64,000 bases of DNA, from the NCBI GenBank assembly GCA_963848295.1, contig CAWKDB010000001.1:1-64000 (forward strand). Direction: 5' to 3'. The stretch is from an uncultured delta proteobacterium (GTDB lineage: Bacteria > Myxococcota_A > Polyangia > Haliangiales > Haliangiaceae). The position numbers and the translations under genes are program-made. The first letter of the stretch is position 1. The number at the start of each line of letters is the position of its first letter. The notes beneath the pieces are model-generated. The model was given only the letters and a program-made list of their open reading frames with translations, ran no database searches and was not told the origin of the DNA. Positions 15,008 to 26,678 of the stretch are shown piece by piece.

Positions 15008-15101
15008 GCGCGATCTCGCATGCGACGCGTGCGACGGCTGCGACATCGGTGGCTGGAGAGGTGTCGATGCCCGGCGATGATGGTAAAGACGCCGCGTGGT
15101 G

Positions 15102-16271
15102 ATGCGCGCGCTGCTGTTCTCTGTCGTCATCGCTGCGGCCGCTTGCAGCAAGGGCTCGGCGTCGCAAGCGCAAGGTCGCGGGCCGATGCCGCCCGCCGAG
15201 GTTTCGGTCGTCACGCTCGAGACCGAGAAGGTGACGCTCCAGACCGAGCTGTCGGGCCGGACGACCGCATCTCTCGAGTCCGAAGTCCGGCCGCAGATCA
15301 CGGGCATCGTCAAGGCGCGCACGTTCGTCGAGGGCGCCGCGGTGAAGGCAGGCCAGGTGATCTATCAGATCGAGCCGGCGCAGTATCAGGCGGCGTATCA
15401 GGCCGCGGCCGCCGATCTCGCGAGCGCGAAGGCGCAGCTCGAGTCCGCGAAGATCCGCGACGACCGCTACGCCGGGTTGCTCAAGATCGAGGGTGTGTCG
15501 AAGCAGGAGGCCGACGACGCGCGGCTCACTCACGCGCAGGCCGCGGCCAGCGTCGCTCAGAAGACCGCGGCGCTCGAGATGGCGCGGATCAACCTCGGCT
15601 ACACGTCGATCGTGGCGCCGATCAGCGGCCGGATCGGCAAGTCCTCGGTGACGCCGGGCGCGCTGGTCACCGCAGGACAGCCGGCGGTGCTCGCGACGAT
15701 CCGCGCGCTCGACCCGATCTATGTCGATGTCACCGAGTCCACCGAACAGCGCCTGAGGCTCCGCGCGCAGCTCGGCGCGGGTGGACTGCAAGCCGGCTCG
15801 ACCACGGTCAAGCTGCTGTTGCCCGATGGCTCGACGTACGACCACCCCGGCACGCTCGAGTTCTCCGAGGTCGCGGTCGACGAGGCGACGGGGACGGTGA
15901 CGCTGCGCGCGAAGTTCCCGAACCCGGAGGGCACGCTGCTCCCCGGCATGTACGTGCGCGCCGTGCTCGACGAAGCGGTCGATCAGAACGCGATCCTCGC
16001 ACCGCAGCAGGGCATCACGCACGACGCGAAGGGCAACGCGACCGCGATGGTGGTCGGTCCCGATGGCAAGGTCGAGCTACGCACGTTGGTCGCGACTCGC
16101 GCGATCGGCGATCGCTGGCTGGTCGACAGTGGGCTCAAGGCCGGGGACAAGCTGATCGTCGAAGGTCTCAACAAGATCGGCCCGGGCATGCCGGTGCATG
16201 CGACCGAGCTCGGCGCCGGCTCCGGCTCCGGATCGGGCTCCGCCGCACCGCCACCACCGCCAGGGAAGTAA
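15102..16271 (+). CDS. RND efflux periplasmic adaptor (AcrA/MexA-like lipoprotein)
   Basis: AAAC lipobox, EVRPQITG, APISGRIG, LLPGMYVR. Confidence 0.93.
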   Translation: MRALLFSVVIAAAACSKGSASQAQGRGPMPPAEVSVVTLETEKVTLQTELSGRTTASLESEVRPQITGIVKARTFVEGAAVKAGQVIYQIEPAQYQAAYQAAAADLASAKAQLESAKIRDDRYAGLLKIEGVSKQEADDARLTHAQAAASVAQKTAALEMARINLGYTSIVAPISGRIGKSSVTPGALVTAGQPAVLATIRALDPIYVDVTESTEQRLRLRAQLGAGGLQAGSTTVKLLLPDGSTYDHPGTLEFSEVAVDEATGTVTLRAKFPNPEGTLLPGMYVRAVLDEAVDQNAILAPQQGITHDAKGNATAMVVGPDGKVELRTLVATRAIGDRWLVDSGLKAGDKLIVEGLNKIGPGMPVHATELGAGSGSGSGSAAPPPPPGK

Positions 16272-19200
16272 TGCTCGCGAGGTTCTTCGCCAACCGCCCC
16301 GTCTTCGCGTGGGTGCTCTCGATCGGCATCATGCTCGCCGGCGTCGCGTCGATCCTCGCGCTGCCGATCGCGCAGTATCCCAACGTCGCTCCGCCGAGCG
16401 TGAACATCTCGGCCGGCTACACCGGCGCCTCGGCCGATACCGTCGAGGCGAGCGTGACCCAGGTACTCGAGCAGCAGCTAACCGGCATCGACGGCCTGTT
16501 GTACTTCTCGAGCACGTCGACCTCGCAGGGCACCGCGAACATCAACGTCACGTTCACGCAGGGCACGAACCCGGACGTCGCGCAGGTCCAGGTCCAGAAC
16601 AAGATCCAGCAGGCGATCCCTCGCCTGCCACCCTCGGTCCAGCAGGGCGGCATCGTCGTGACCAAGGCGCAGACGAACTTCCTGACGATCGTCGCGATCT
16701 ACGACGAGACCGATCGCGCGAAAGACAGCGACATCGCGGACTACCTCAACAGCACGTTGGCCGACTCGATCGCGCGGGTCAACGGCGTCGGCGGCATCCA
16801 GGTGTTCGGCGGCGCGTATGCGATGCGGATCTGGCTCGATCCGCAAAAGCTGTTCGCGCTGAACCTCATGCCGAGCGACATCGAAGCGGCGATCCAGGCG
16901 CAGAACGTCCAGGTCTCGGCCGGCAAGATCGGCGGGCAGCCGGCGCCGCCCGGCCAACAGCTCAACGCGACGGTCACCGCGCAATCGAAGCTGCGCACCG
17001 CCGACCAATTCAAGGCGATCATCGTCAAGTACGATCCGAACGGAGCGACGGTCCGGCTCGGCGACGTCGCGCATGTCGAGCTCGGCAGCGAGGCCTACGA
17101 CTTCGCGACCCGGCTCAATCGCCACCCCGCATCGGGCCTCGCGGTGTTGCTCGCACCGAACGCGAACGCGCTCGCGGTCGCCGACAACGTCAAGGCGAAG
17201 GTCGCCGAGTTCCAGCACACGATGCCGGCCGGTTGGCGCGTGAGCTATCCGTTCGACAGCACGAAGTTCATCCGGATCTCGATCGAAGAGGTCGTCAAGA
17301 CGCTGATCGAAGCGATCGTGCTCGTCGTGCTCGTGATGTTCCTGTTCTTGCAGAGCTGGCGCGCGACGTTGATCCCGGTGATCGCGGTGCCGGTCGTGAT
17401 GCTCGGCACGATGTGCGTGCTGAGGCTGCTGAATTATTCGATCAACACGCTGACGATGTTCGGGTTGGTGCTGTCGATCGGGCTGCTCGTCGACGACGCG
17501 ATCGTCGTGGTCGAGAACGTCGAGCGGTTGATGCGCGAGGACAACCTGTCGCCGATCGAAGCGACGGTGCGTTCGATGAAGGAGATCACCGGCGCCTTGG
17601 TCGGCGTCGCGACCGTGCTGTCCGCCGTGTTCCTGCCGATGGCGTTCTTCAGCGGCGCGACCGGCGTCATCTATCGCCAGTTCTCGATCACGATCGTCGC
17701 GTCGATGCTGCTGTCGGTGTTCGTCGCGCTGACGATCACGCCCGCGATGTGTGCCTCGCTGCTGCGCGCGACCCACCACGCGCCGCGCCGCGGTCCGTTG
17801 GCGTGGTTCAACCGCGGCTTCGACAAGTTCACCCACGGCTATCGCGGGATGGTCGCGTGGATGCTGCGCGGGCCGTTGAAGTGGCTCGTGCCGTACGCCG
17901 CGGTCTGCGTCGTGATGTACGCGATGCTGACGAAGCTACCTACCGGGTTCCTGCCGCAAGAAGATCAAGGCGTCGGGATGGTGATCTGGACGCTGCCCGC
18001 CGGTGCGACGCTCGGTCGTACGGTCAACGTCGCGAAGGCCGTCGAGGATCACTACCTCGGATTCGAGAAGAAGAACGTCGACTCGCTGTTCACGGTCGCC
18101 GGGTTCAGCTTCATCGGCGCCGGCCAGAACGCCGGCATGGCGTTCGTCGAGCTCAAGGACTGGGACGACCGGCCCGGCAAGGACAACACCGCGGCCGCGA
18201 TCTCGAATCGCGCGACCGGCATGCTGTCGAGCGTGCGCGACGCGTTCATCTTCGCGCTCACCCCGCCCGCGATCCAAGGCCTCGGCCAGTCCGAGGGCTT
18301 CGACTTCGAGCTCCAAGCGGCTGGCGGCACCGACCGGACCAAGCTCGCCGCCGCACGCGATCAGCTGCTCGCGGCCGCGTCCAAGGATCCCGCGCTGGTC
18401 GCGGTCCGCCGCGGCGATCTACCCGAGACGCCCCAGCTCAAGATCGACATCGATCAAGCCAAGGCGTCCGCGCACGGGCTGTCATCGAGCGACATCACGA
18501 ACACGCTGACCGCGGCGTGGGGCGGCGTCTACGTCAATGACTTCATCGATCGCGGTCGCGTCAAGCGCGTGTTCGTGCAAGGCGACGCGCAATTCCGCTC
18601 GAAGCCCGAGGACCTCGCGCAGTGGTACGTGCGCGGCGCGACCGGCCAGATGACGCCATTCTCGGCGTTCGCGACGACCCACTGGACGAACGGCGCCGAG
18701 TCGCTGTCGCGCTACAACGGCCTCGCCGCGTACGAGATCCAGGGCATGGGCGCGCCGGGCACGAGCTCGGGCACGGCGATGGACGAGATGGAGAAGCTCG
18801 CGAAGCAGCTGCCGCCCGGGACGACGTACTCGTGGACCGGCCAATCGTATCAAGAGCGGATCGCGAGCGGCCAGACCCTGACGCTCTATGCGATCTCGCT
18901 GCTCGTGATCTTCCTGTGCCTCGCCGCGCTCTACGAGAGCTGGTCGGTGCCGTTCTCGGTGCTGCTCGTGATCCCGCTCGGCATCGTCGGCGCCGTGATC
19001 GCGGCGAACGTGCGCGGCCTGGAGAACGACGTGTACTTTCGCGTCGCGCTGCTGACGACGATGGGCCTGTCGTCGAAGAATGCGATCCTGATCGTCGAGT
19101 TCGCCGAGACCGCGTATCATAAAGGCGCGTCGCTGGTCGACGCCGCGGTCACGGGTGCGAGGCTGCGGTTGCGGCCGATCGTGATGACGTCGCTCGCGTT

Positions 19201-19381
19201 CATCGCCGGCGTGTTGCCGCTCGCGGTCTCCACCGGCGCCGGCGCGAACAGCCGCGTCTCGATCGGCTCGGGGATCGTCGGCGGGACGCTGACCGGGACG
19301 CTGCTCGCGATCGTGTTCGTGCCGGTGTTCTTCGTGCTCGTCCGCAAGCTCGTGCGCGGCAAGCGCCAGGTGGAGTCGTGA
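16271..19381 (+). CDS. RND efflux permease (AcrB/MexB, HAE1)
   Basis: MLARFFANRPVFAWV, GLLVDDAIVVVENVER, KNAILIVEFA, RLRPIVMTSLAF; TAATG coupling. Confidence 0.96.
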   Translation: MLARFFANRPVFAWVLSIGIMLAGVASILALPIAQYPNVAPPSVNISAGYTGASADTVEASVTQVLEQQLTGIDGLLYFSSTSTSQGTANINVTFTQGTNPDVAQVQVQNKIQQAIPRLPPSVQQGGIVVTKAQTNFLTIVAIYDETDRAKDSDIADYLNSTLADSIARVNGVGGIQVFGGAYAMRIWLDPQKLFALNLMPSDIEAAIQAQNVQVSAGKIGGQPAPPGQQLNATVTAQSKLRTADQFKAIIVKYDPNGATVRLGDVAHVELGSEAYDFATRLNRHPASGLAVLLAPNANALAVADNVKAKVAEFQHTMPAGWRVSYPFDSTKFIRISIEEVVKTLIEAIVLVVLVMFLFLQSWRATLIPVIAVPVVMLGTMCVLRLLNYSINTLTMFGLVLSIGLLVDDAIVVVENVERLMREDNLSPIEATVRSMKEITGALVGVATVLSAVFLPMAFFSGATGVIYRQFSITIVASMLLSVFVALTITPAMCASLLRATHHAPRRGPLAWFNRGFDKFTHGYRGMVAWMLRGPLKWLVPYAAVCVVMYAMLTKLPTGFLPQEDQGVGMVIWTLPAGATLGRTVNVAKAVEDHYLGFEKKNVDSLFTVAGFSFIGAGQNAGMAFVELKDWDDRPGKDNTAAAISNRATGMLSSVRDAFIFALTPPAIQGLGQSEGFDFELQAAGGTDRTKLAAARDQLLAAASKDPALVAVRRGDLPETPQLKIDIDQAKASAHGLSSSDITNTLTAAWGGVYVNDFIDRGRVKRVFVQGDAQFRSKPEDLAQWYVRGATGQMTPFSAFATTHWTNGAESLSRYNGLAAYEIQGMGAPGTSSGTAMDEMEKLAKQLPPGTTYSWTGQSYQERIASGQTLTLYAISLLVIFLCLAALYESWSVPFSVLLVIPLGIVGAVIAANVRGLENDVYFRVALLTTMGLSSKNAILIVEFAETAYHKGASLVDAAVTGARLRLRPIVMTSLAFIAGVLPLAVSTGAGANSRVSIGSGIVGGTLTGTLLAIVFVPVFFVLVRKLVRGKRQVES

Positions 19382-20748
19382 GGCGAGCCGCGCTCCTCGC
19401 CGCGCTCGCGAGCTGCTACTCGATGGCGCCCGAGTACAAGCGCCCTGCGTCGCCGGTCGCGGCGCAGATCGCGGGCGGCCAGGGCAGCGCGAAGGCCTCG
19501 GACGTGCCGCTCGAGCAATTCGTGCGCGATCCCAAGCTGCGCCAGATCCTCGCGCAGGTCGTCGCGCAGAACCGCTCGCTGCGTCGCGCGGTGCTCGACA
19601 TCGAGTCCGCGCGCCAGCTCTACCGGATCCAGCGCGCCGGGGTCTATCCGCAGGTCGGCCTGTCCGCCGGCGTCGTGACCGGCGCCGAGTTCCTCGGCAT
19701 CCCGGGCGAGGAGACGATCAAGATCACCGAGTACTCGGCCTCGGTCGGGCTCGCGAGCTGGGAGCTCGATCTGTTCGGCAAGGTCAAGAGCCAGTCCGAC
19801 TCGAAGCTGCACCAATACTTCTCGGCGGTCGAATCCGCGCGCGCGCAACGCACGAGCTTGATCGCCGAGGCCGCGGCAGCGTACGTCACGATCGCGGCCG
19901 ATCGCAGCCGGCTCGCGATCGCGCGCGACACGATGGCGACGTCGAAGAAGGCGATGGATCTGACCGAGGAGCTCGTCGGCGGCGGCACGTCGAACCGTGG
20001 CGACTTCTGGCAGGCGTCGACGGTCTACGACCAGGCGCGGGGCGATGTCGCCGCGCTGACCGCGACGATCGCGCAAGACCGCAACGCACTCGAGCTGCTC
20101 GCCGGCGGCAAGCTCGACGATGCGCTGTTGCCGGCGTCGCTGCCCGATGCGCTCGATTGGTTCGCCGACGTACCGGTCGGCCTGTCGTCGGACGTGTTGC
20201 TCGAGCGGCCCGACGTGCTCGCCGCCGAGCACGATCTCATGGCGGCGAACGCGAACATCGGCGCGGCGCGCGCGGAGTTCTTTCCCTCGATCACGTTGAC
20301 CGCGAGTGGCGGGCTCGCGAGCCTCACGCTTGGCAAGCTGTTCACCGCGCCGACCGCGTTGTGGACGATCGCGCCCGGCCTCAACCTGCCGCTGTTCCGC
20401 GGTGGGGCGCTGCGCGCGAACCTCGCGTACACCGAGACGCAGAAGCTCGGCTTCGTCGCCACGTACGAGCGCGCGATCGAGAGCGCGTTTCGCGAGGTCG
20501 CCGACGCGCTCGCGACTCGCGCGACGATCGAGGACCAGCTCGCGGCGCAGACGGCGCTCGTCGAAGCGGCGACCAAAGGGCTCGAGCTGGCGCAGGCGCG
20601 CTACAAGGCCGGCGTCGACACGTTCCTGGCGACGCTCGTCTCGGAGCGCGCGTTGTACGCGGCGAAGAACTCGCTGGTCGCGACGCAGCTCGCGGCGCTC
20701 GACAACCGCGTGACGCTGTATCGCGTCCTCGGCGGCGGCTTGAAGTAG
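19378..20748 (+). CDS. RND outer-membrane factor lipoprotein (OprM/NodT-like)
   Basis: LASC lipobox, SWELDLFG, RPDVLAAE, LYRVLGGG. Confidence 0.93.
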   Translation: MRRAALLAALASCYSMAPEYKRPASPVAAQIAGGQGSAKASDVPLEQFVRDPKLRQILAQVVAQNRSLRRAVLDIESARQLYRIQRAGVYPQVGLSAGVVTGAEFLGIPGEETIKITEYSASVGLASWELDLFGKVKSQSDSKLHQYFSAVESARAQRTSLIAEAAAAYVTIAADRSRLAIARDTMATSKKAMDLTEELVGGGTSNRGDFWQASTVYDQARGDVAALTATIAQDRNALELLAGGKLDDALLPASLPDALDWFADVPVGLSSDVLLERPDVLAAEHDLMAANANIGAARAEFFPSITLTASGGLASLTLGKLFTAPTALWTIAPGLNLPLFRGGALRANLAYTETQKLGFVATYERAIESAFREVADALATRATIEDQLAAQTALVEAATKGLELAQARYKAGVDTFLATLVSERALYAAKNSLVATQLAALDNRVTLYRVLGGGLK

Positions 20749-20750
20749 CG

Positions 20751-21836
20751 CTATGACAGCAACAGACAGCGATCCCAGGCCGGTGCGGTCGTTGGATCGA
20801 GCGCCGCGATCAGCGCGAGGCCGACGCCGGCGGTGCCTTGCAGCAGATCGTCGCACGCGACATCGCGGCTGAGCAGATGAAAGTCGAGGCCGTGCGGCCG
20901 CGCCGCGAGCGAGAGCGTGTGAGCGAGCCAGCGGTCGGCGCCGACCAGCCATCCGCCGTCGCCGGTCGCGAGCGCGGCGCGGCGGTACATGTGCGAGACC
21001 CCCATGCTGCCGTGGCACAGCGACACGTCCGCGATCTTGCCGTTGTCGGCGTCGCGATGCGCGAGCGTATGGACGAGCAGCTCGCGAGCTGCGGCGAGCA
21101 CGGCGGTGTCGCCGAGCCGGGTGCCGGCTCGCCATAACGCCGATGCGATGGCGAGATCGCCGTAGCACCAGCCGAGCCGACTGGGCTCGGGGTCGCCGGC
21201 GAGCGCCGGGTACAGCGATGGCCCGCACGGCGATCGCGCCGCGCGCACGAGCTCGGTCAGCCGTCGCAGCAACGGCTGGCAGGCGACGCCGCGTTCGTCG
21301 GCGTGGCTCGCGAGCACGAGCGCCGCGGCCGCGCCATGGGCGAGCCCGAGGTCGAGCGGCGCCGCGCGGTACACCCGTTCGAGCCGGTCGAGCGCGGCTT
21401 CGACACACGCGCGCGCGGCCGGCGTCGGCAGTCGCTCGATCGCGTAGAGCAGAGCACCGACGCCATCGTGGAGAAAGTCGCTGCGTCCGGCATCGAGGTC
21501 GGCGATGACCCACGGCAACAGCACGCGATCGAGCTCGTCGAATGCATCCGCCGCGTCGATCATGCCGAGCGCGGCGAGATGCTGCAACCCCCAGCCGATG
21601 CCGGCGAGCCCGCTGCAATGCGAACGGCTCGCCACGCCAGTCGCGACCGCCGCGAGACAACGCTCGACCAGCGCGTGCAGCAGATCGATCTGGTCATCAT
21701 CGCCGGTGAGCTGAAAATAGTACGCGCGAAACAGCGCGCGACCCGCGTCGCCGTCGAGCAGCCCCGGCCGGACCTCGGCCGACTCGCGCAGCGCGCGATC
21801 GATGTGATGCAAGAGCTCGGGGGCGCTCGGCGTCAT
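20751..21836 (-). CDS. lanC: Lanthionine synthetase LanC-type cyclase
   Basis: GLAHG (catalytic His), WCYG and CHG (Zn ligands), repeated GxxG hairpins (GLLDGDAG, SGLAG, LLQGTAG); ATG 21836 preceded by GAGGT. Confidence 0.9.
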   Translation of the reverse strand: MTPSAPELLHHIDRALRESAEVRPGLLDGDAGRALFRAYYFQLTGDDDQIDLLHALVERCLAAVATGVASRSHCSGLAGIGWGLQHLAALGMIDAADAFDELDRVLLPWVIADLDAGRSDFLHDGVGALLYAIERLPTPAARACVEAALDRLERVYRAAPLDLGLAHGAAAALVLASHADERGVACQPLLRRLTELVRAARSPCGPSLYPALAGDPEPSRLGWCYGDLAIASALWRAGTRLGDTAVLAAARELLVHTLAHRDADNGKIADVSLCHGSMGVSHMYRRAALATGDGGWLVGADRWLAHTLSLAARPHGLDFHLLSRDVACDDLLQGTAGVGLALIAALDPTTAPAWDRCLLLS

Positions 21837-21844
21837 GACAGACC

Positions 21845-22012
21845 TCAGCAGCCGTAGACCGACGTGCCGGTCGTACAACACTGCTCGGCGCAGATGCTCG
21901 CCTTCGTCATCGCCGGCGCGAGGCCACCGCCGGCCGCGCGCAGGTCGCTGTCGCTGAGCACGGCGACGGTGATCTTGTTGAGGTTCAGCTTCTTGGTCGG
22001 GATCTTCTTCAT
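21845..22012 (-). CDS. Class I-type lanthipeptide precursor (55 aa)
   Basis: MKKIPTKKLNLNKITVAVLSDSDLRAAGGG-LAPAMTKASICAEQCCTTGTSVYGC: LxLxKx5L leader motif, Gly-Gly-type junction, core with 4 Cys and 6 Ser/Thr; ends 8 nt upstream of lanC. Confidence 0.85.
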   Translation of the reverse strand: MKKIPTKKLNLNKITVAVLSDSDLRAAGGGLAPAMTKASICAEQCCTTGTSVYGC

Positions 22013-22135: not shown

Positions 22136-24856
22136 TCAGGGGTTAGCGCTGCGGCGCTGCTGCCATGCCGCGATCTCCGCGAGCCGGGTCTCGATGTGCG
22201 TGACCATCAGGCGGAGCCCGCCGGGTTTCACGGTCGCGAGCGCGGCGCGAAAGTCGCGTACGGCGTCGTCAGCCAGCGTCCTCGCGCGTGCCCGCTCGGG
22301 GGCGCCACCGTCGTCCCATAGCGCCCGGGCGAGCCCGAACTCGGCGCCGGCGCGGCGTTGCAGGAGCGCGTCGGGATCGTCGACGAGCTTGCGCACCACG
22401 GGTTCGAGCAACTCGCGCGCCTCGTGCGGCTTGCCGGTCGTGACGAGCGCGCCGCCGAGCGCGACCGCGGCCGATGCGTAGTCGGTCGCGAGCCCAGGCT
22501 TGCGGTCGATCTCGACCGCCTTGCGCAGCGGCTCGAGCGCTTGCTCCGGCTTGCCGAGCTGCAGCCAGCCACGGCCGATGCCCTCGTTCGCTTCGCCTTG
22601 CACATCGTCGCCGCCGCTTCCCGGGTCGTGCTCGACCAGATCGAGCACGCCGCGATACGCCTCGACCATCATCCGGCCGTTGTCGTCGATCTCGTACGAC
22701 CGCGCGAGCGCGATCGCGGCGGCGATCTCGGCGCTCCGCTCGTGCATCTCGTGCGCGACCGCGACGTACTCGCGCGACAGCGTGATCGCGCGCGGCGCGT
22801 CGCCGGCCTGAAATGCAAGCATCTGCTTGTTCGCGATCGTCACGAGGTCCTTGACCCCGCCGCTCTGGGCGCGCGCGAGGTCCCCGAGCCTCGCCTGTTC
22901 CAAGGCCTTGCTCGTCTCCTCGAAGTTGCCGCTCGCGGAGTACTCGCGCGCGAGCAACAGATACAAGCTGGTGAGCTCGGGGCTGTGAGCGCCGGTCCGG
23001 GCGGTCATCGGCGCGAGCAGGCCGCGTGCGAGCCCGATCGCGGTGGCGTGGTCGCCGGTCGCCGATGCCAGCTCGGCGCGGACGTTGGTGACGAAGACCT
23101 CGAGCTCGGGATCGCCGCCGGCGCGCGCCAGGGCCGCGGTGGCGAGCTCGATCGCCGAACGCGCTTCGTCGAGCTTGCCGAGCTTGATCACGATCTGCGC
23201 GAGCGAGTGTGCGACGCGCGCGACGCCGAGGTCGTCGTGGTTAGCCTCGGCGGTCGCCATCGCGTGGCGCAAGACGTCGGCCGCGGCGTCTGGTTGCGAG
23301 CCGCGCGCGAGCGCCTCGGCTTCGGTGGTGGATGCGTCGATGATCGCCGGCTCGTAGCCGAGCGCGGTCGCGGTCGCGACAAGCGCGTGGATGTCCTCGA
23401 GCTTGCCGGTGCCGGAAAGCGCGAGCCCGAGCTCGGCCGCGTCGATCTGTTTGCGCAGTTGCTCGCCCGCTTGTTGCTGCATCGGCGACGCCGAGCCGCG
23501 CAGTGCCGTCCGGCAATCCCCGAGCGGGGGTAGCGCGAGCACCGCTGCATGCAGTTGATCGGGATCGGTGGCCGGGGTGACGCTCGCGACGAGGCTGCGC
23601 AATGCCTCGCGTGCGCGATCGAGGCAGGTCATTCTCGGATCGCCGCTCGCGTTGCCGGCGAGACACGCATCGCGCCGCAGCGCGATCCAGTCGTGGGCGT
23701 AGCTATCGACGATCGGCTTCGCGCTCGCGAACGTCGCTCGTGCGGCGGCGGTCCACGTGTCGTCGAGCTCGCTCGCCGTCGCGCGGCACGCGTCGACGGC
23801 GGAATGGCTGCTCGCGACGGTGAGCCCGATCGCGATCCCGACCGCCGCGAGCGACAGCAACCCACCGGCGACGAATGGCCAACGTCGCCGCGGCGGCCCG
23901 AGGGCGGCGCGCAGCGAGTCGATGGACGGAAAGCGCTGCGCGGGATCGGCGCGCAAGCCGCGCTCGAGGGCGGCGCGAATGCGGGCAGGCACTCGACGGC
24001 TGTCCGGCGTCGGCGCCAGCTCGCCCGCTTCGATCCGGGTGCGCAGCTCGGCATAGGTCTTCGCGGCGAACGGTCGCGCGCCGTAGAGTGCCTCCCACGC
24101 GGTCACGCAGAAGCTAAATTGATCAGACGCGACGGTCGGCTCGCCATCGGCGTGCTCCGGCGCCATGTACGCCGGTGTTCCGAGCACCGCGCCGGTCTGC
24201 GTCAGGTCGAACAGGTCGCGCACGCTCGCGGCGGCATCGAGCTCGCCATCGCTGCGCGCGAGCCCGAAGTCGCCGACTTGGACGGTGCCATCGTCGCCGA
24301 CGAAGATGTTGTCCGGCTTGAGATCGCGGTGGATGAGGCCAGCGGCGTGGGCCGCGGCAAGCCCGCTCGCCGCATCCCGTACGATGCGAACGGTGACGTC
24401 GGTTGGATGAGGGTTGGCGAGCCACGACCTCAGATTTTCGCCGTCGACCAGCTCCATCGCCACGAACGTCTGGCCATCGTGCTCGCCGACGTCGTAGACC
24501 GCGACGACGTTCGGATGGCGTAGCCGAGCGAGCAGCTGCGCCTCTCGTCGCAACCGAGACGCCGAACCGCCGCCGCGCAGCACCTTGATCGCGACGCGGC
24601 GCTGGAGCTCCGGATCGAACGCACAGTAGACGACGCCCATCGCGCCCGCGCCGAGCCGCCGCTCGATCACGTAGCGGCCGATGCGCTCGGGCGTGCCCGC
24701 GTCCACGGCCGGTGCAGCGCTCAGCTCGAGCAGCGCGGCGAGCATCTGGTGGCACTCGGCGCACGTCGCGGCGTGATCGACGATCGAGGCTCGCACCTGC
24801 GAGTCGAGCGTGTTCGCGACCAGCGCGTTGAACGTGTCCGGCTCGGGGCAGCCCAT
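22136..24856 (-). CDS. Membrane Ser/Thr kinase with N-terminal zinc finger (HxxxCxxC) and TPR-like extracellular region
   Basis: HAATCAEC; GAGAMG, VAIK, HRDLKPDN, DFG, GTPAYMAPE; one TM; helical repeats. Confidence 0.92.
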   Translation of the reverse strand: MGCPEPDTFNALVANTLDSQVRASIVDHAATCAECHQMLAALLELSAAPAVDAGTPERIGRYVIERRLGAGAMGVVYCAFDPELQRRVAIKVLRGGGSASRLRREAQLLARLRHPNVVAVYDVGEHDGQTFVAMELVDGENLRSWLANPHPTDVTVRIVRDAASGLAAAHAAGLIHRDLKPDNIFVGDDGTVQVGDFGLARSDGELDAAASVRDLFDLTQTGAVLGTPAYMAPEHADGEPTVASDQFSFCVTAWEALYGARPFAAKTYAELRTRIEAGELAPTPDSRRVPARIRAALERGLRADPAQRFPSIDSLRAALGPPRRRWPFVAGGLLSLAAVGIAIGLTVASSHSAVDACRATASELDDTWTAAARATFASAKPIVDSYAHDWIALRRDACLAGNASGDPRMTCLDRAREALRSLVASVTPATDPDQLHAAVLALPPLGDCRTALRGSASPMQQQAGEQLRKQIDAAELGLALSGTGKLEDIHALVATATALGYEPAIIDASTTEAEALARGSQPDAAADVLRHAMATAEANHDDLGVARVAHSLAQIVIKLGKLDEARSAIELATAALARAGGDPELEVFVTNVRAELASATGDHATAIGLARGLLAPMTARTGAHSPELTSLYLLLAREYSASGNFEETSKALEQARLGDLARAQSGGVKDLVTIANKQMLAFQAGDAPRAITLSREYVAVAHEMHERSAEIAAAIALARSYEIDDNGRMMVEAYRGVLDLVEHDPGSGGDDVQGEANEGIGRGWLQLGKPEQALEPLRKAVEIDRKPGLATDYASAAVALGGALVTTGKPHEARELLEPVVRKLVDDPDALLQRRAGAEFGLARALWDDGGAPERARARTLADDAVRDFRAALATVKPGGLRLMVTHIETRLAEIAAWQQRRSANP

Positions 24857-24863
24857 CGCGCGT

Positions 24864-24873
24864 AGTGTATCCT
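24864..24873. promoter_or_regulatory. Overlapping divergent -10 hexamers (putative bidirectional leaderless promoter)
   Basis: Minus-strand TACACT (24864-24869) is 7 nt from the kinase ATG; plus-strand TATCCT (24868-24873) is 6 nt from the sigma GTG. Confidence 0.55.
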
Positions 24874-24879
24874 CGACGC

Positions 24880-25686
24880 GTGTCCGATCCGCTCGCTAGC
24901 GCGATCCGCGCCGCCCACGCGACCGCTCGTGCCGCTTGGCCCGACGTCGCGGTCGAGCTCGTTCGGTTCGATGCCGAGCTGCGCCGCCGGCTCGGCCCGG
25001 AGCTCTCGGTCGACGAGCTCGCGAAGATCGTCACGACCGATGTCTATCTCGCGATCGCGTGCGCCGACGGCGATTCGCGGGCCGCGGCGCACCTCGAGCG
25101 CGAGCACTTCGCCGAGGTCGACATCGCGGCGCGCAAGCTGCGCGCAACCGACGAGCAAGCCGCCGAGATGCGCGGCCACCTGCGCGGCATCCTGTTCACG
25201 TCCGAGGGCAACCGGCGCGCCGCGCTCGCCGAGTTCACCGGGCGGGGCGACCTGCGCGGTTACTTCAAGGTGATCGCGACGCGCGAGCTGATCCGCGTCA
25301 TCAACCGCGGCCGCAAGGAGTTGCCGATCGAACCGGTGCTCGACCGGCTCGAGATCGATCGCGCGCCGGAGCTCAGCCTGCTGCGGGCGCGCCACGGTGC
25401 CGACATCGCGGTCGCGTTGCGCACCGCGCTCGCCGCGTTGCCCGAACGAGAGCGCGCGTTGCTCCGCTACAGCCTTGTCGACGGCTGGACTGTCGATCAG
25501 ATCGGCGAGGCGTACGGCGTGCATCGCGCTACCGCCGCGCGCTGGGCCGCCGCCGCTCGCGACGCGCTCGGCGAGCGCATCCGCGCCGAAGTCGCGGCCC
25601 GGCTCGCGATCGATCAAGGCGACGTCGACTCGCTGATCGAGCTCGTGCGCAGCCGGATCGATGTCTCGCTCGAACGCATTCTGTGA
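24880..25686 (+). CDS. Sigma-70 family factor, Myxococcales kinase-associated type
   Basis: DVYLAIACADGD, FTGRGDL, region 4 HTH (LPERERALL...QIGEAYGVHRATAARW), SRIDVSL. Confidence 0.8.
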   Translation: MSDPLASAIRAAHATARAAWPDVAVELVRFDAELRRRLGPELSVDELAKIVTTDVYLAIACADGDSRAAAHLEREHFAEVDIAARKLRATDEQAAEMRGHLRGILFTSEGNRRAALAEFTGRGDLRGYFKVIATRELIRVINRGRKELPIEPVLDRLEIDRAPELSLLRARHGADIAVALRTALAALPERERALLRYSLVDGWTVDQIGEAYGVHRATAARWAAAARDALGERIRAEVAARLAIDQGDVDSLIELVRSRIDVSLERIL

Positions 25687-25688
25687 AC

Positions 25689-26678
25689 CTAGAACGACGG
25701 GAACGTGTTCTTGCCGTCGGTGGTGAGCGGAGCGAAGTTCTGCAGGTCGGTCGTCGCGTAGAGGTTGCTCGCGAACATCGCGGTGTCGTGGCCCTGGATC
25801 ACGAGGGTCGTGCCGTCGGGGGACTCGCTGACGTTGTCCATCGAGTAACCGGTCGGCGCTGGCACGGTGCCGGTCACCGCGCCGTTCTGGACGAGCAGGA
25901 TGCCGTTACCGCTGCCGACCTGGCCGAGCGCCAGGATCGTGCCGTCGGGAAAGATCATGGGCTTGCTCAACTCGACCTCGGCGTGCACGAGCAAGGCGCC
26001 GCTTCCGTCGGGATCGTGCCTCCACAGCCCCTCGTTGTTCCCGTCGATGCACACCGAGTGGATCGCGATGACGTACGACCCGTCGGGCGAGAACCTCGGG
26101 TTGGTAACACCGGTGCAGTTGCTGCCCATCGCGGCCCCGAGCATCGTGACCGAGCCACCGGCGACCGCGACGGTCGATAGCGCGGTGCCGCCGCTCTCGC
26201 CGTCGAACAGGCCATAGTCGAGATAGAGCGTGCTGCCATCGGGCGACCACTCCGGGCCGTCGAGCGTGACCTCGTAGCCAGCCGGCGGCGTGATCGGTTC
26301 GGACACTTGATGCGGATTCGACCCGTCGACGCCGACGACGAACACCGCGGTCGGGATGGTGTACGCGATCCATTTGCGGTCGGGCGAGATCGCGATGCCG
26401 GTGATGGAGTCTCCAGCCGACAGCAGCTCACTCGACGCGCCCGACAGATCGCCGACCATCAGGCTGTCCAGGTACGGCGCGTCTTCGTGCGCGAACGCGA
26501 ACGACGACGGGCCGAGCGCGGTCGGGTCCCCCGAGCCCGAGCCGGACCCCGAGCCCGATCCGGACCCCGAGCCCGAGCCCGATCCGGACCCCGAGCCCGA
26601 GCCCGATCCGGACCCCGAGCCAGGTTGCGAGACGCACGAACACAGCACCGCGATGCCGATGACGATCAGGTTGCGCAT
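25689..26678 (-). CDS. Lipoprotein with (GS)n linker and TolB/PD40-like beta-propeller
   Basis: MRNLIVIG...CSC; ISPDRK, WSPDG, FSPDG and SPDG repeats. Confidence 0.8.
   Translation of the reverse strand: MRNLIVIGIAVLCSCVSQPGSGSGSGSGSGSGSGSGSGSGSGSGSGSGSGDPTALGPSSFAFAHEDAPYLDSLMVGDLSGASSELLSAGDSITGIAISPDRKWIAYTIPTAVFVVGVDGSNPHQVSEPITPPAGYEVTLDGPEWSPDGSTLYLDYGLFDGESGGTALSTVAVAGGSVTMLGAAMGSNCTGVTNPRFSPDGSYVIAIHSVCIDGNNEGLWRHDPDGSGALLVHAEVELSKPMIFPDGTILALGQVGSGNGILLVQNGAVTGTVPAPTGYSMDNVSESPDGTTLVIQGHDTAMFASNLYATTDLQNFAPLTTDGKNTFPSF
26530..26622 (-). repeat. Hexamer-based tandem repeat encoding about (GS)15
   Basis: CCCGAG/CCCGAT/CCGGAC units in tandem. Confidence 0.9.

Follow-up and report, generated by a model that had tools for sequence, protein, structure and literature searches.

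Class I lanthipeptides of Gram-negative bacteria have been described from clusters in the Bacteroidota, namely those of Chryseobacterium and Runella (PMC9993889), the viridisin cluster (PMC9680876) and the clusters of Walker et al. (2020, PMC7268733). In the parts of these accounts drawn on here, lanA, lanB and lanC lie together, and the systems combine an LxLxKx5L leader ending in Gly-Gly (the class I leader type described in PMC7268733), a zinc-type LanC, a LanB dehydratase and a C39 exporter. The cassette reported below shares the leader type and the stand-alone zinc-type LanC, and its genome also encodes a full-length LanB and a C39 exporter. It differs from those clusters in that lanB and the exporter lie on another contig, that one LanB faces three separate lanC genes, and that its host is Kofleriaceae-like (Myxococcota).

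The cassette lies in a window of 64,000 nucleotides, the whole stretch of DNA analyzed, at the start of contig C1 of an uncultured delta proteobacterium (genome G000). It consists of a precursor gene, lanA1, and a cyclase gene, lanC1. From sequence and genomic context, we consider it probable that the cassette is a class I-type satellite, served in trans by a LanB encoded elsewhere and using ordinary class I chemistry. The features of the locus are as follows.

15096..20748, forward strand: RND efflux operon, convergent with the cassette and marking its 3' boundary.
20751..21836, reverse strand: lanC1, a stand-alone class I cyclase of 361 aa (H167, C224/Y225, C274/H275, D120, R220).
21837..21847, reverse strand: lanA1 stop codon TGA (21847-21845), an overlapping Shine-Dalgarno-like word, TGAGGT, and the 8-nt gap to lanC1.
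21845..22012, reverse strand: lanA1, precursor peptide gene, 55 aa (ORF translation, NF038153, homologues P0036/P0037, family alignment A3).
21848..21922, reverse strand: LanA1 core, 25 aa (T6, S9, C11, C16, T/S18 and C25 conserved in the family).
21923..22012, reverse strand: LanA1 leader, 30 aa (LxLxKx5L motif, Leu at -7 and -12, Gly-Gly end).
22136..24856, reverse strand: receptor-type Ser/Thr kinase with a kinase domain, one TM helix (~329-347) and TPRs.
24865..25686, forward strand: gene for an ECF-type sigma factor, divergently oriented to the kinase gene (Sigma70_r4_2, synteny).

LanA1 is composed of the leader MKKIPTKKLNLNKITVAVLSDSDLRAAGGG and the core LAPAMTKASICAEQCCTTGTSVYGC. A sequence-only reading of this DNA had described a 55-aa precursor with an exact LxLxKx5L leader and a Gly-Gly end. 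This is borne out by the class I lanthipeptide leader model of NCBIfam, NF038153, which scores the leader at 31.4 bits against a cut-off of 22, the exact fit to the motif being LNLNKITVAVL. The two leucines follow the -7/-12 leader rule of C39 exporters. Translation likewise agrees with the 25-aa core, four Cys and six Ser/Thr of that reading, the Cys falling at positions 11, 15, 16 and 25 and the Ser/Thr at 6, 9, 17, 18, 20 and 21. A Pfam scan of the precursor returned 0 families, and the ESM Atlas gave leader-domain clusters at 0.89 that serve as leads only. Close precursor homologues, P0036/P0037, have 87% and 80% identity; because both keep all four Cys, the lanA1 ORF is not a chance reading frame. 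P0038, listed in the same cluster, proved to be a protein of 407 aa unrelated to the precursor and was set aside.

The lanC1 start, an ATG at 21836, lies 8 nt past the lanA1 stop, the same gap as in the earlier description, and the GLAHG, WCYG and CHG motifs noted there as intact are all present. The arrangement of stop codon, Shine-Dalgarno-like word and gap suggests that the two genes are likely to be translationally coupled. A sigma-70 promoter scan found 0 sites; two terminator-like sites fall within lanC1. LanC1 matches PF05147 (E 3e-27) and has no fused domain. H167, C224, Y225, C274 and H275 are invariant across a 12-row LanC alignment and represent the zinc triad with the catalytic His and Tyr; the catalytic pair, His212/Tyr285 in NisC, is taken from PMC9934072. 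An AlphaFold model of LanC1 (pLDDT 79.7) finds its best fold matches in MadC (top), LanCL and NisC (rank 6), and a sequence search against solved structures gave 0 matches at E 0.001. LanC1 is ~35-50 aa shorter than most relatives, with short loop deletions in common with its closest orthologue. In a quick tree, it groups with LanCs of Chitinophaga and Ferruginibacter; the clade is otherwise Bacteroidota-rich, which hints at transfer between phyla.

On the 3' side, lanC1 stops 2 nt from the stop of the convergent RND outer-membrane gene, so that no further gene can come after it in the operon. The RND operon also neighbors family loci L149 and L069, is absent at the other family loci, and probably lies outside the lanthipeptide system. 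On the other side, the kinase gene ends 124 bp upstream of lanA1 on the same strand, and the true start of the ECF gene may be further down. Kinase and sigma factor are both possible regulators; the pair is retained at L014 and L160, and the kinase is absent at G066 and at the Chitinophaga loci. Two predicted exported proteins of the window carry Gly-Ser dipeptide repeat linkers (PD/PE on the opposite strand), at 26519-26640 and about 59,150.

No dehydratase or C39 transporter had been seen near the cassette, and this holds on the contig as searched: LanB, C39 peptidase and LanM-type dehydratase have 0 matches on C1 outside 104,001-112,000, an 8-kb interval situated 82 kb from the cassette, and the left flank of ~20 kb (20.7 kb) is the start of the contig. 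By the clustering criterion of Walker et al., a lanB within seven genes, the cassette falls outside class I. Since C1 outside 104,001-112,000 carries no lanB, the layout is a variant one.

Members of the core's family occur in both Myxococcota and Chitinophaga. Across an alignment of 11 precursors, S9, C11, C16 and C25 are invariant and position 18 is occupied by Thr or Ser in every one; T6 is in register in nine and one residue off in two, and C15 is replaced by Ser in two. Such a core, with three conserved Ser/Thr residues preceding three conserved Cys, would suit thioether rings. The sequence-only reading had recognized no lanthipeptide that the core matches: we found no characterized match, but it is not a one-off, since the family is conserved across phyla.

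Ten family loci have a readable context past lanC: the window, G112/L149, G012 (L014), G066 (L276), L160, L077, L143, L071/L151, L099 and L156/L157. Loci L164, L177 and L150 were left out of this count, as their contigs end too soon. A lanB adjoins in one of the ten (L160) and is absent in nine, in two phyla; consistent presence of lanB at orthologous loci, named beforehand as a finding that would count against a satellite, is thus not what is observed. L160 reads kinase-ECF-lanA-lanC-lanB, with lanB directly after lanC, and its core has TKASICAEQ in common with LanA1. Five Chitinophaga loci (L077, L099, L143, L156 and L071) have the order HlyD-C39ABC-lanA-lanC-response regulator, without lanB; at L071 the precursor is frameshifted. 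All eight satellite carriers that could be searched (G000, G112, G012, G066, G115-G118) encode a LanB away from the satellite. In the Chitinophaga genomes, three to five LanB matches occur, and these are of other kinds.

Genome G000 (7.8 Mb, 85% complete) encodes one intact LanB, at G000:C2:785177-788341, with PF04738 and PF14028 in a single 1054-aa frame. It aligns to MibB/NisB with catalytic motifs retained. The genome has a single ABC transporter with a C39 peptidase, accompanied by HlyD and TolC genes, at C2:788.7-795.4 kb. The closest titled homologues come from MAGs of Kofleriaceae and Haliangiales, and the host is likely to be a member of the Kofleriaceae. None of the three stand-alone lanC genes of the genome lies within 460 kb of lanB on lanB's contig. 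A 35-row FastTree unites the LanBs of G000, G112, G012 and L160 within a single clade of seven members with support 100; G012 carries the same satellite and a lone LanB. G066, also with the satellite, has as its only LanB an enzyme 43.6% identical to that of G000, beside a lanC of its own, and the LanB clade and the satellite are therefore not strictly paired. The sequence-only reading had offered a satellite with a shared LanB in trans as one of two explanations. It is supported by the lone lanB and C39-ABC elsewhere in the genome, by the split layout in relatives and by the clade shared with the L160 enzyme.

The lanB and exporter genes of C2 might be taken for one conserved locus. We rejected this, because a junction near C2:788,548 (C2:788,350-788,700, L006) cuts short both a kinase-nSTAND1 gene and a cupin gene, which run on in the sister genome G112, where the parts lie on separate contigs. 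The junction that brings lanB beside the exporter is either a real deletion or an assembly error. Directly after the exporter operon, at C2:795,466-796,561, is a frameshifted reverse-transcriptase/maturase-like ORF with a YADD motif, which we take to be of the group II intron type.

A further lanB could be missing from G000, given its 85% completeness and the 8 kb of C1 outside the search. A different LanB, encoded in the 15% of the genome missing from the assembly or in C1:104,001-112,000, might then serve the cassette in trans, the more so as only 20.7 kb separate the cassette from the contig end at which the window begins. This is improbable: G112, 90% complete, also has exactly one LanB, 92% identical to that of G000 (dN/dS between the two 0.119), and the lone LanB already falls in a clade with the L160 enzyme.

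If the cassette is a satellite of the lone LanB, LanA1 and LanC1 would be made together, and leader residues 7-22 would dock as a beta-strand on that LanB (G000:C2:785177-788341). With glutamyl-tRNA as its cosubstrate, LanB would dehydrate T6, S9, T18 and possibly further residues, as in the tRNA-dependent class I dehydration described in PMC7268733 and PMC9993889. LanC1 would add the Cys thiols, the simplest rings being T6-C11, S9-C16 (or C15) and T18-C25, with C15 left free or engaged in a fourth ring. The C39-ABC/HlyD/TolC set (C2:788.7-795.4 kb) would then cut after the Gly-Gly (Gly30) and export the peptide. The dehydratase would be common to several peptides, each scaffold having its own cyclase. 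A complex model of LanB residues 1-745 with LanA1 scores 0.69 against 0.01 for the best of three controls; 38% or more of the contacts agree between runs, the partner has a pLDDT of 44 or higher, and the mark for this score is reached by 116 of 157 solved pairs and 2 of 215 mismatched pairs. The model places leader residues 7-22 against LanB 178-185. Because a like complex, NisB-NisA, is already solved, the model speaks for likeness, not binding, and the placement may only mirror the likeness to NisB-NisA.

A class I assignment agrees with the class I leader with its Ser/Thr/Cys-rich core, the stand-alone LanC and the full-length LanB in the genome. As for class II (LanM), LanC1 has no fused dehydratase and the genome has no PF13575 match, though the control gave none either. 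For class III/IV (LanKC/LanL), NCBIfam scores are 45 and 41 bits against cut-offs of 575 and 650, and the kinase, with its TM helix and TPRs, is encoded by a gene of its own. Class V is defined by a separate LanK kinase and a LanY lyase beside lanC. HopA1 (PF17914) has no match in the genome, and the cassette has no further enzyme gene at its flanks; judged by these two results, the cassette is not of class V. The eukaryotic LanCL type does not fit the Tyr of WCYG or the precursor gene 8 nt upstream.

Processing without any LanB could be envisaged in two forms: a class V-like route using the neighboring kinase and a lyase, or a LanCL-like intermolecular thiol addition, with the Cys in disulfides. 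The Ser/Thr kinase gene 124 bp upstream, the enrichment of such peptides by kinases (see below) and the LanCL structures near the top of the fold search lend this some appeal, but we give it little credence. The TM helix and TPRs of the kinase are typical of a receptor, and the gene is missing at G066 and the Chitinophaga loci; neither DUF4135 nor HopA1 has a match in the genome (the DUF4135 control being without a match too); and the Tyr of WCYG is that of bacterial class I LanC rather than the His of LanCL, according to the part of PMC9934072 used here. The same core motif, moreover, adjoins lanB in the complete lanA-lanC-lanB locus L160. For this reason, the non-canonical LanC chemistry that the sequence-only reading had proposed as its second explanation is not supported, and we hold it unlikely.

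The cassette is under purifying selection. Between LanC1 and the 85%-identical LanC of L149, dN/dS is 0.187 (CI 0.13-0.27) at a dS of 0.45, with 0.15 and 0.07 for neighboring-gene controls; L149 has the same RND operon 3', and neither L149 nor the window has a downstream lanB. Ratios against distant LanCs (L075 0.42, L160 0.62) were set aside as unreliable, because identity is 46-47% in high-GC DNA. That the cassette is a decaying remnant of a lanA-lanC-lanB cluster, with lanB lost and the product no longer made, might be read from the complete form at L160, the loop deletions in LanC1 and the frameshifted precursor of Chitinophaga L071, but is very improbable in view of a dN/dS of 0.19 at dS 0.45 between two copies without downstream lanB, the retention of all Cys in precursor homologues and the lanB-less form of 9/10 readable loci in two phyla. 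The cassette is likely to have come from an L160-like lanA-lanC-lanB locus after lanB moved or was lost locally. Several Bacteroidota loci (L072-L118, L121, L134, L146) have one lanB with several precursors, some with repeated lanA-lanC pairs; these repeats by a single lanB are a possible in-cluster forerunner of the satellite layout.

The genome search that the earlier reading had recommended, for LanB, C39 transporters and other precursors, thus returned one, one and about 11 Gly-Gly-leader peptides, the last scattered over the genome. A leader HMM seeded with nine of the peptides, first found by pattern or phmmer, recovers ten at E up to 0.03 (best reversed control, E 0.28) and an eleventh more weakly. 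FNLD-type leaders gave 27 regex matches, 0 of them precursor-like. Leader-family matches were found in both LanB-bearing genomes tested and in 0/3 well-assembled genomes without LanB and LanC (E up to 1). On C10, lanC2 is followed by its own GG-leader precursor, forming a second satellite, lanC2-lanA2 (C10:2866493-2868063), that is conserved in G112 with dN/dS of 0.128 for LanC2 and 0.117 for LanA2. Two orphan LanA2 paralogues (C10:2999764 and C10:2562936) have PTTT/THT-type cores with two Cys and occur in G112 and G080 as well. The third gene, lanC3 (C2:319075-320199, L008), stops 5 bp short of a frameshifted kinase-nSTAND1-WD40 gene, after which comes a one-Cys precursor; several genes are frameshifted at this locus. 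In several genus members, degenerate-Zn LanC-like genes (L044, L045, L043, L028, L034) adjoin Gly-Gly precursors and large kinases; 8 of 19 degenerate LanCs have a precursor within 2 kb.

Of ten peptide genes, six have one of the 202 kinase genes no more than 150 bp away, against 7.8% under a gene-end-slot null (P 4e-5). At 12 nSTAND1 loci, a peptide gene adjoins 6/6 with a WD40 tail (kinase-nSTAND1-WD40, NLR-like) and 1/6 without. These nSTAND1-linked peptide genes of G000 are located as follows.

C10:350163
C10:1948500
C10:4360283
C11:345296
C2:313468
C2:730100
C10:4158681

In G112, two kinase-nSTAND1-WD40 loci with readable 3' ends (L317, L318) also have a peptide gene; at 12 nSTAND1 loci of G011, G095, G108 and G113, one of which matched the WD40 query, there was none. 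Most nSTAND1-linked cores are short with few Cys, and some of these peptides may therefore not be lanthipeptides. We may speculate that the Kofleriaceae possess a dispersed peptide-signaling network, in which one LanB and one C39 exporter serve ~11 peptides, most beside receptor-type kinases, the cyclase travels with each ringed scaffold, and the cassette peptide is a ligand or output of the kinase/ECF module and not an antibiotic; we regard this as doubtful. A signaling role is a lead only, because the kinase-ECF pair of the window is kept in L014 and L160 and absent from G066 and Chitinophaga.

To place these observations in the genus, 91 genomes were searched and two unpublished ones removed (n = 89), most relatives being fragmented MAGs. 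Both LanC and LanB matches occur in 37, LanC only in 7, LanB only in 7 and neither in 38, a co-occurrence (Fisher P 4e-11) overstated by the survey because kin are not independent. PF05147 matches also take in LanM/LanKC domains and LanCL-like proteins. Just 22 of 117 LanC matches are at most 15 kb from a LanB match, a separation that fragmented MAGs inflate. Among the 37 genomes with both, 27 have more LanC than LanB and 19 have no adjacent pair; 7 of the 44 LanC-positive genomes lack a LanB match. From 83 fetched loci with 78 LanC genes, a sample biased to contigs without lanB, 59 LanC genes keep all three motifs. Of these, 26 are flanked on both sides by at least 3.5 kb free of lanB, and for 15 of them a precursor is found no more than 2 kb away.

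In genome mining, a lanB near lanC is what marks a class I lanthipeptide. If scattered pairs are indeed served by a single LanB, most of the lanthipeptides of the genus would escape cluster-based tools (only 22 of the 117 LanC matches are near a LanB match, a separation that fragmentation exaggerates). Cyclases specific to their scaffolds, combined with a LanB that is naturally shared, would also offer a useful engineering set and a direct test of which enzyme sets the ring pattern, and since the core family occurs in cultured Chitinophaga, such work need not depend on the uncultured host. In the literature covered, which leaves out most subscription journals and supplements, we found no description of a class I lanA-lanC satellite served by a distant LanB.

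Among known systems, the prochlorosins (ProcM, class II) likewise have one central enzyme and scattered precursors, as presented in the consulted sections of 10.64898/2026.01.17.700038. ProcM both dehydrates and cyclizes, and precursors alone are scattered; in the cassette, by contrast, the dehydratase would be shared and the cyclases travel with the precursors. The same source reports cross-cluster use of class III/IV synthetases and lists an orphan LanKC; class I is absent from the extra-cluster examples in its sections 3 and 6. A LanC fold without lanB nearby is also found in the LanC-like proteins of Bacteroidales (PMC10352776) and in eukaryotic LanCL. The Bacteroidales cluster examples given there lack the zinc triad and come from genomes without LanB matches, whereas LanC1 keeps the triad, adjoins a Ser/Thr/Cys precursor and has a LanB in its genome. 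LanCL is not known to have a dedicated precursor and, as described in the part of PMC9934072 used here, has His where LanC1 has Tyr after the first zinc Cys. Finally, in the account of Walker et al. (PMC7268733), 1,392 lanC loci without lanB within seven genes are left unclassified, and by this rule the cassette would land among them. The authors suggested an uncharacterized, new RiPP class; for this subset, our evidence points to class I satellites, and should one LanB indeed act for dispersed lanA-lanC pairs, some of these unclassified loci would represent ordinary class I chemistry in a split layout.
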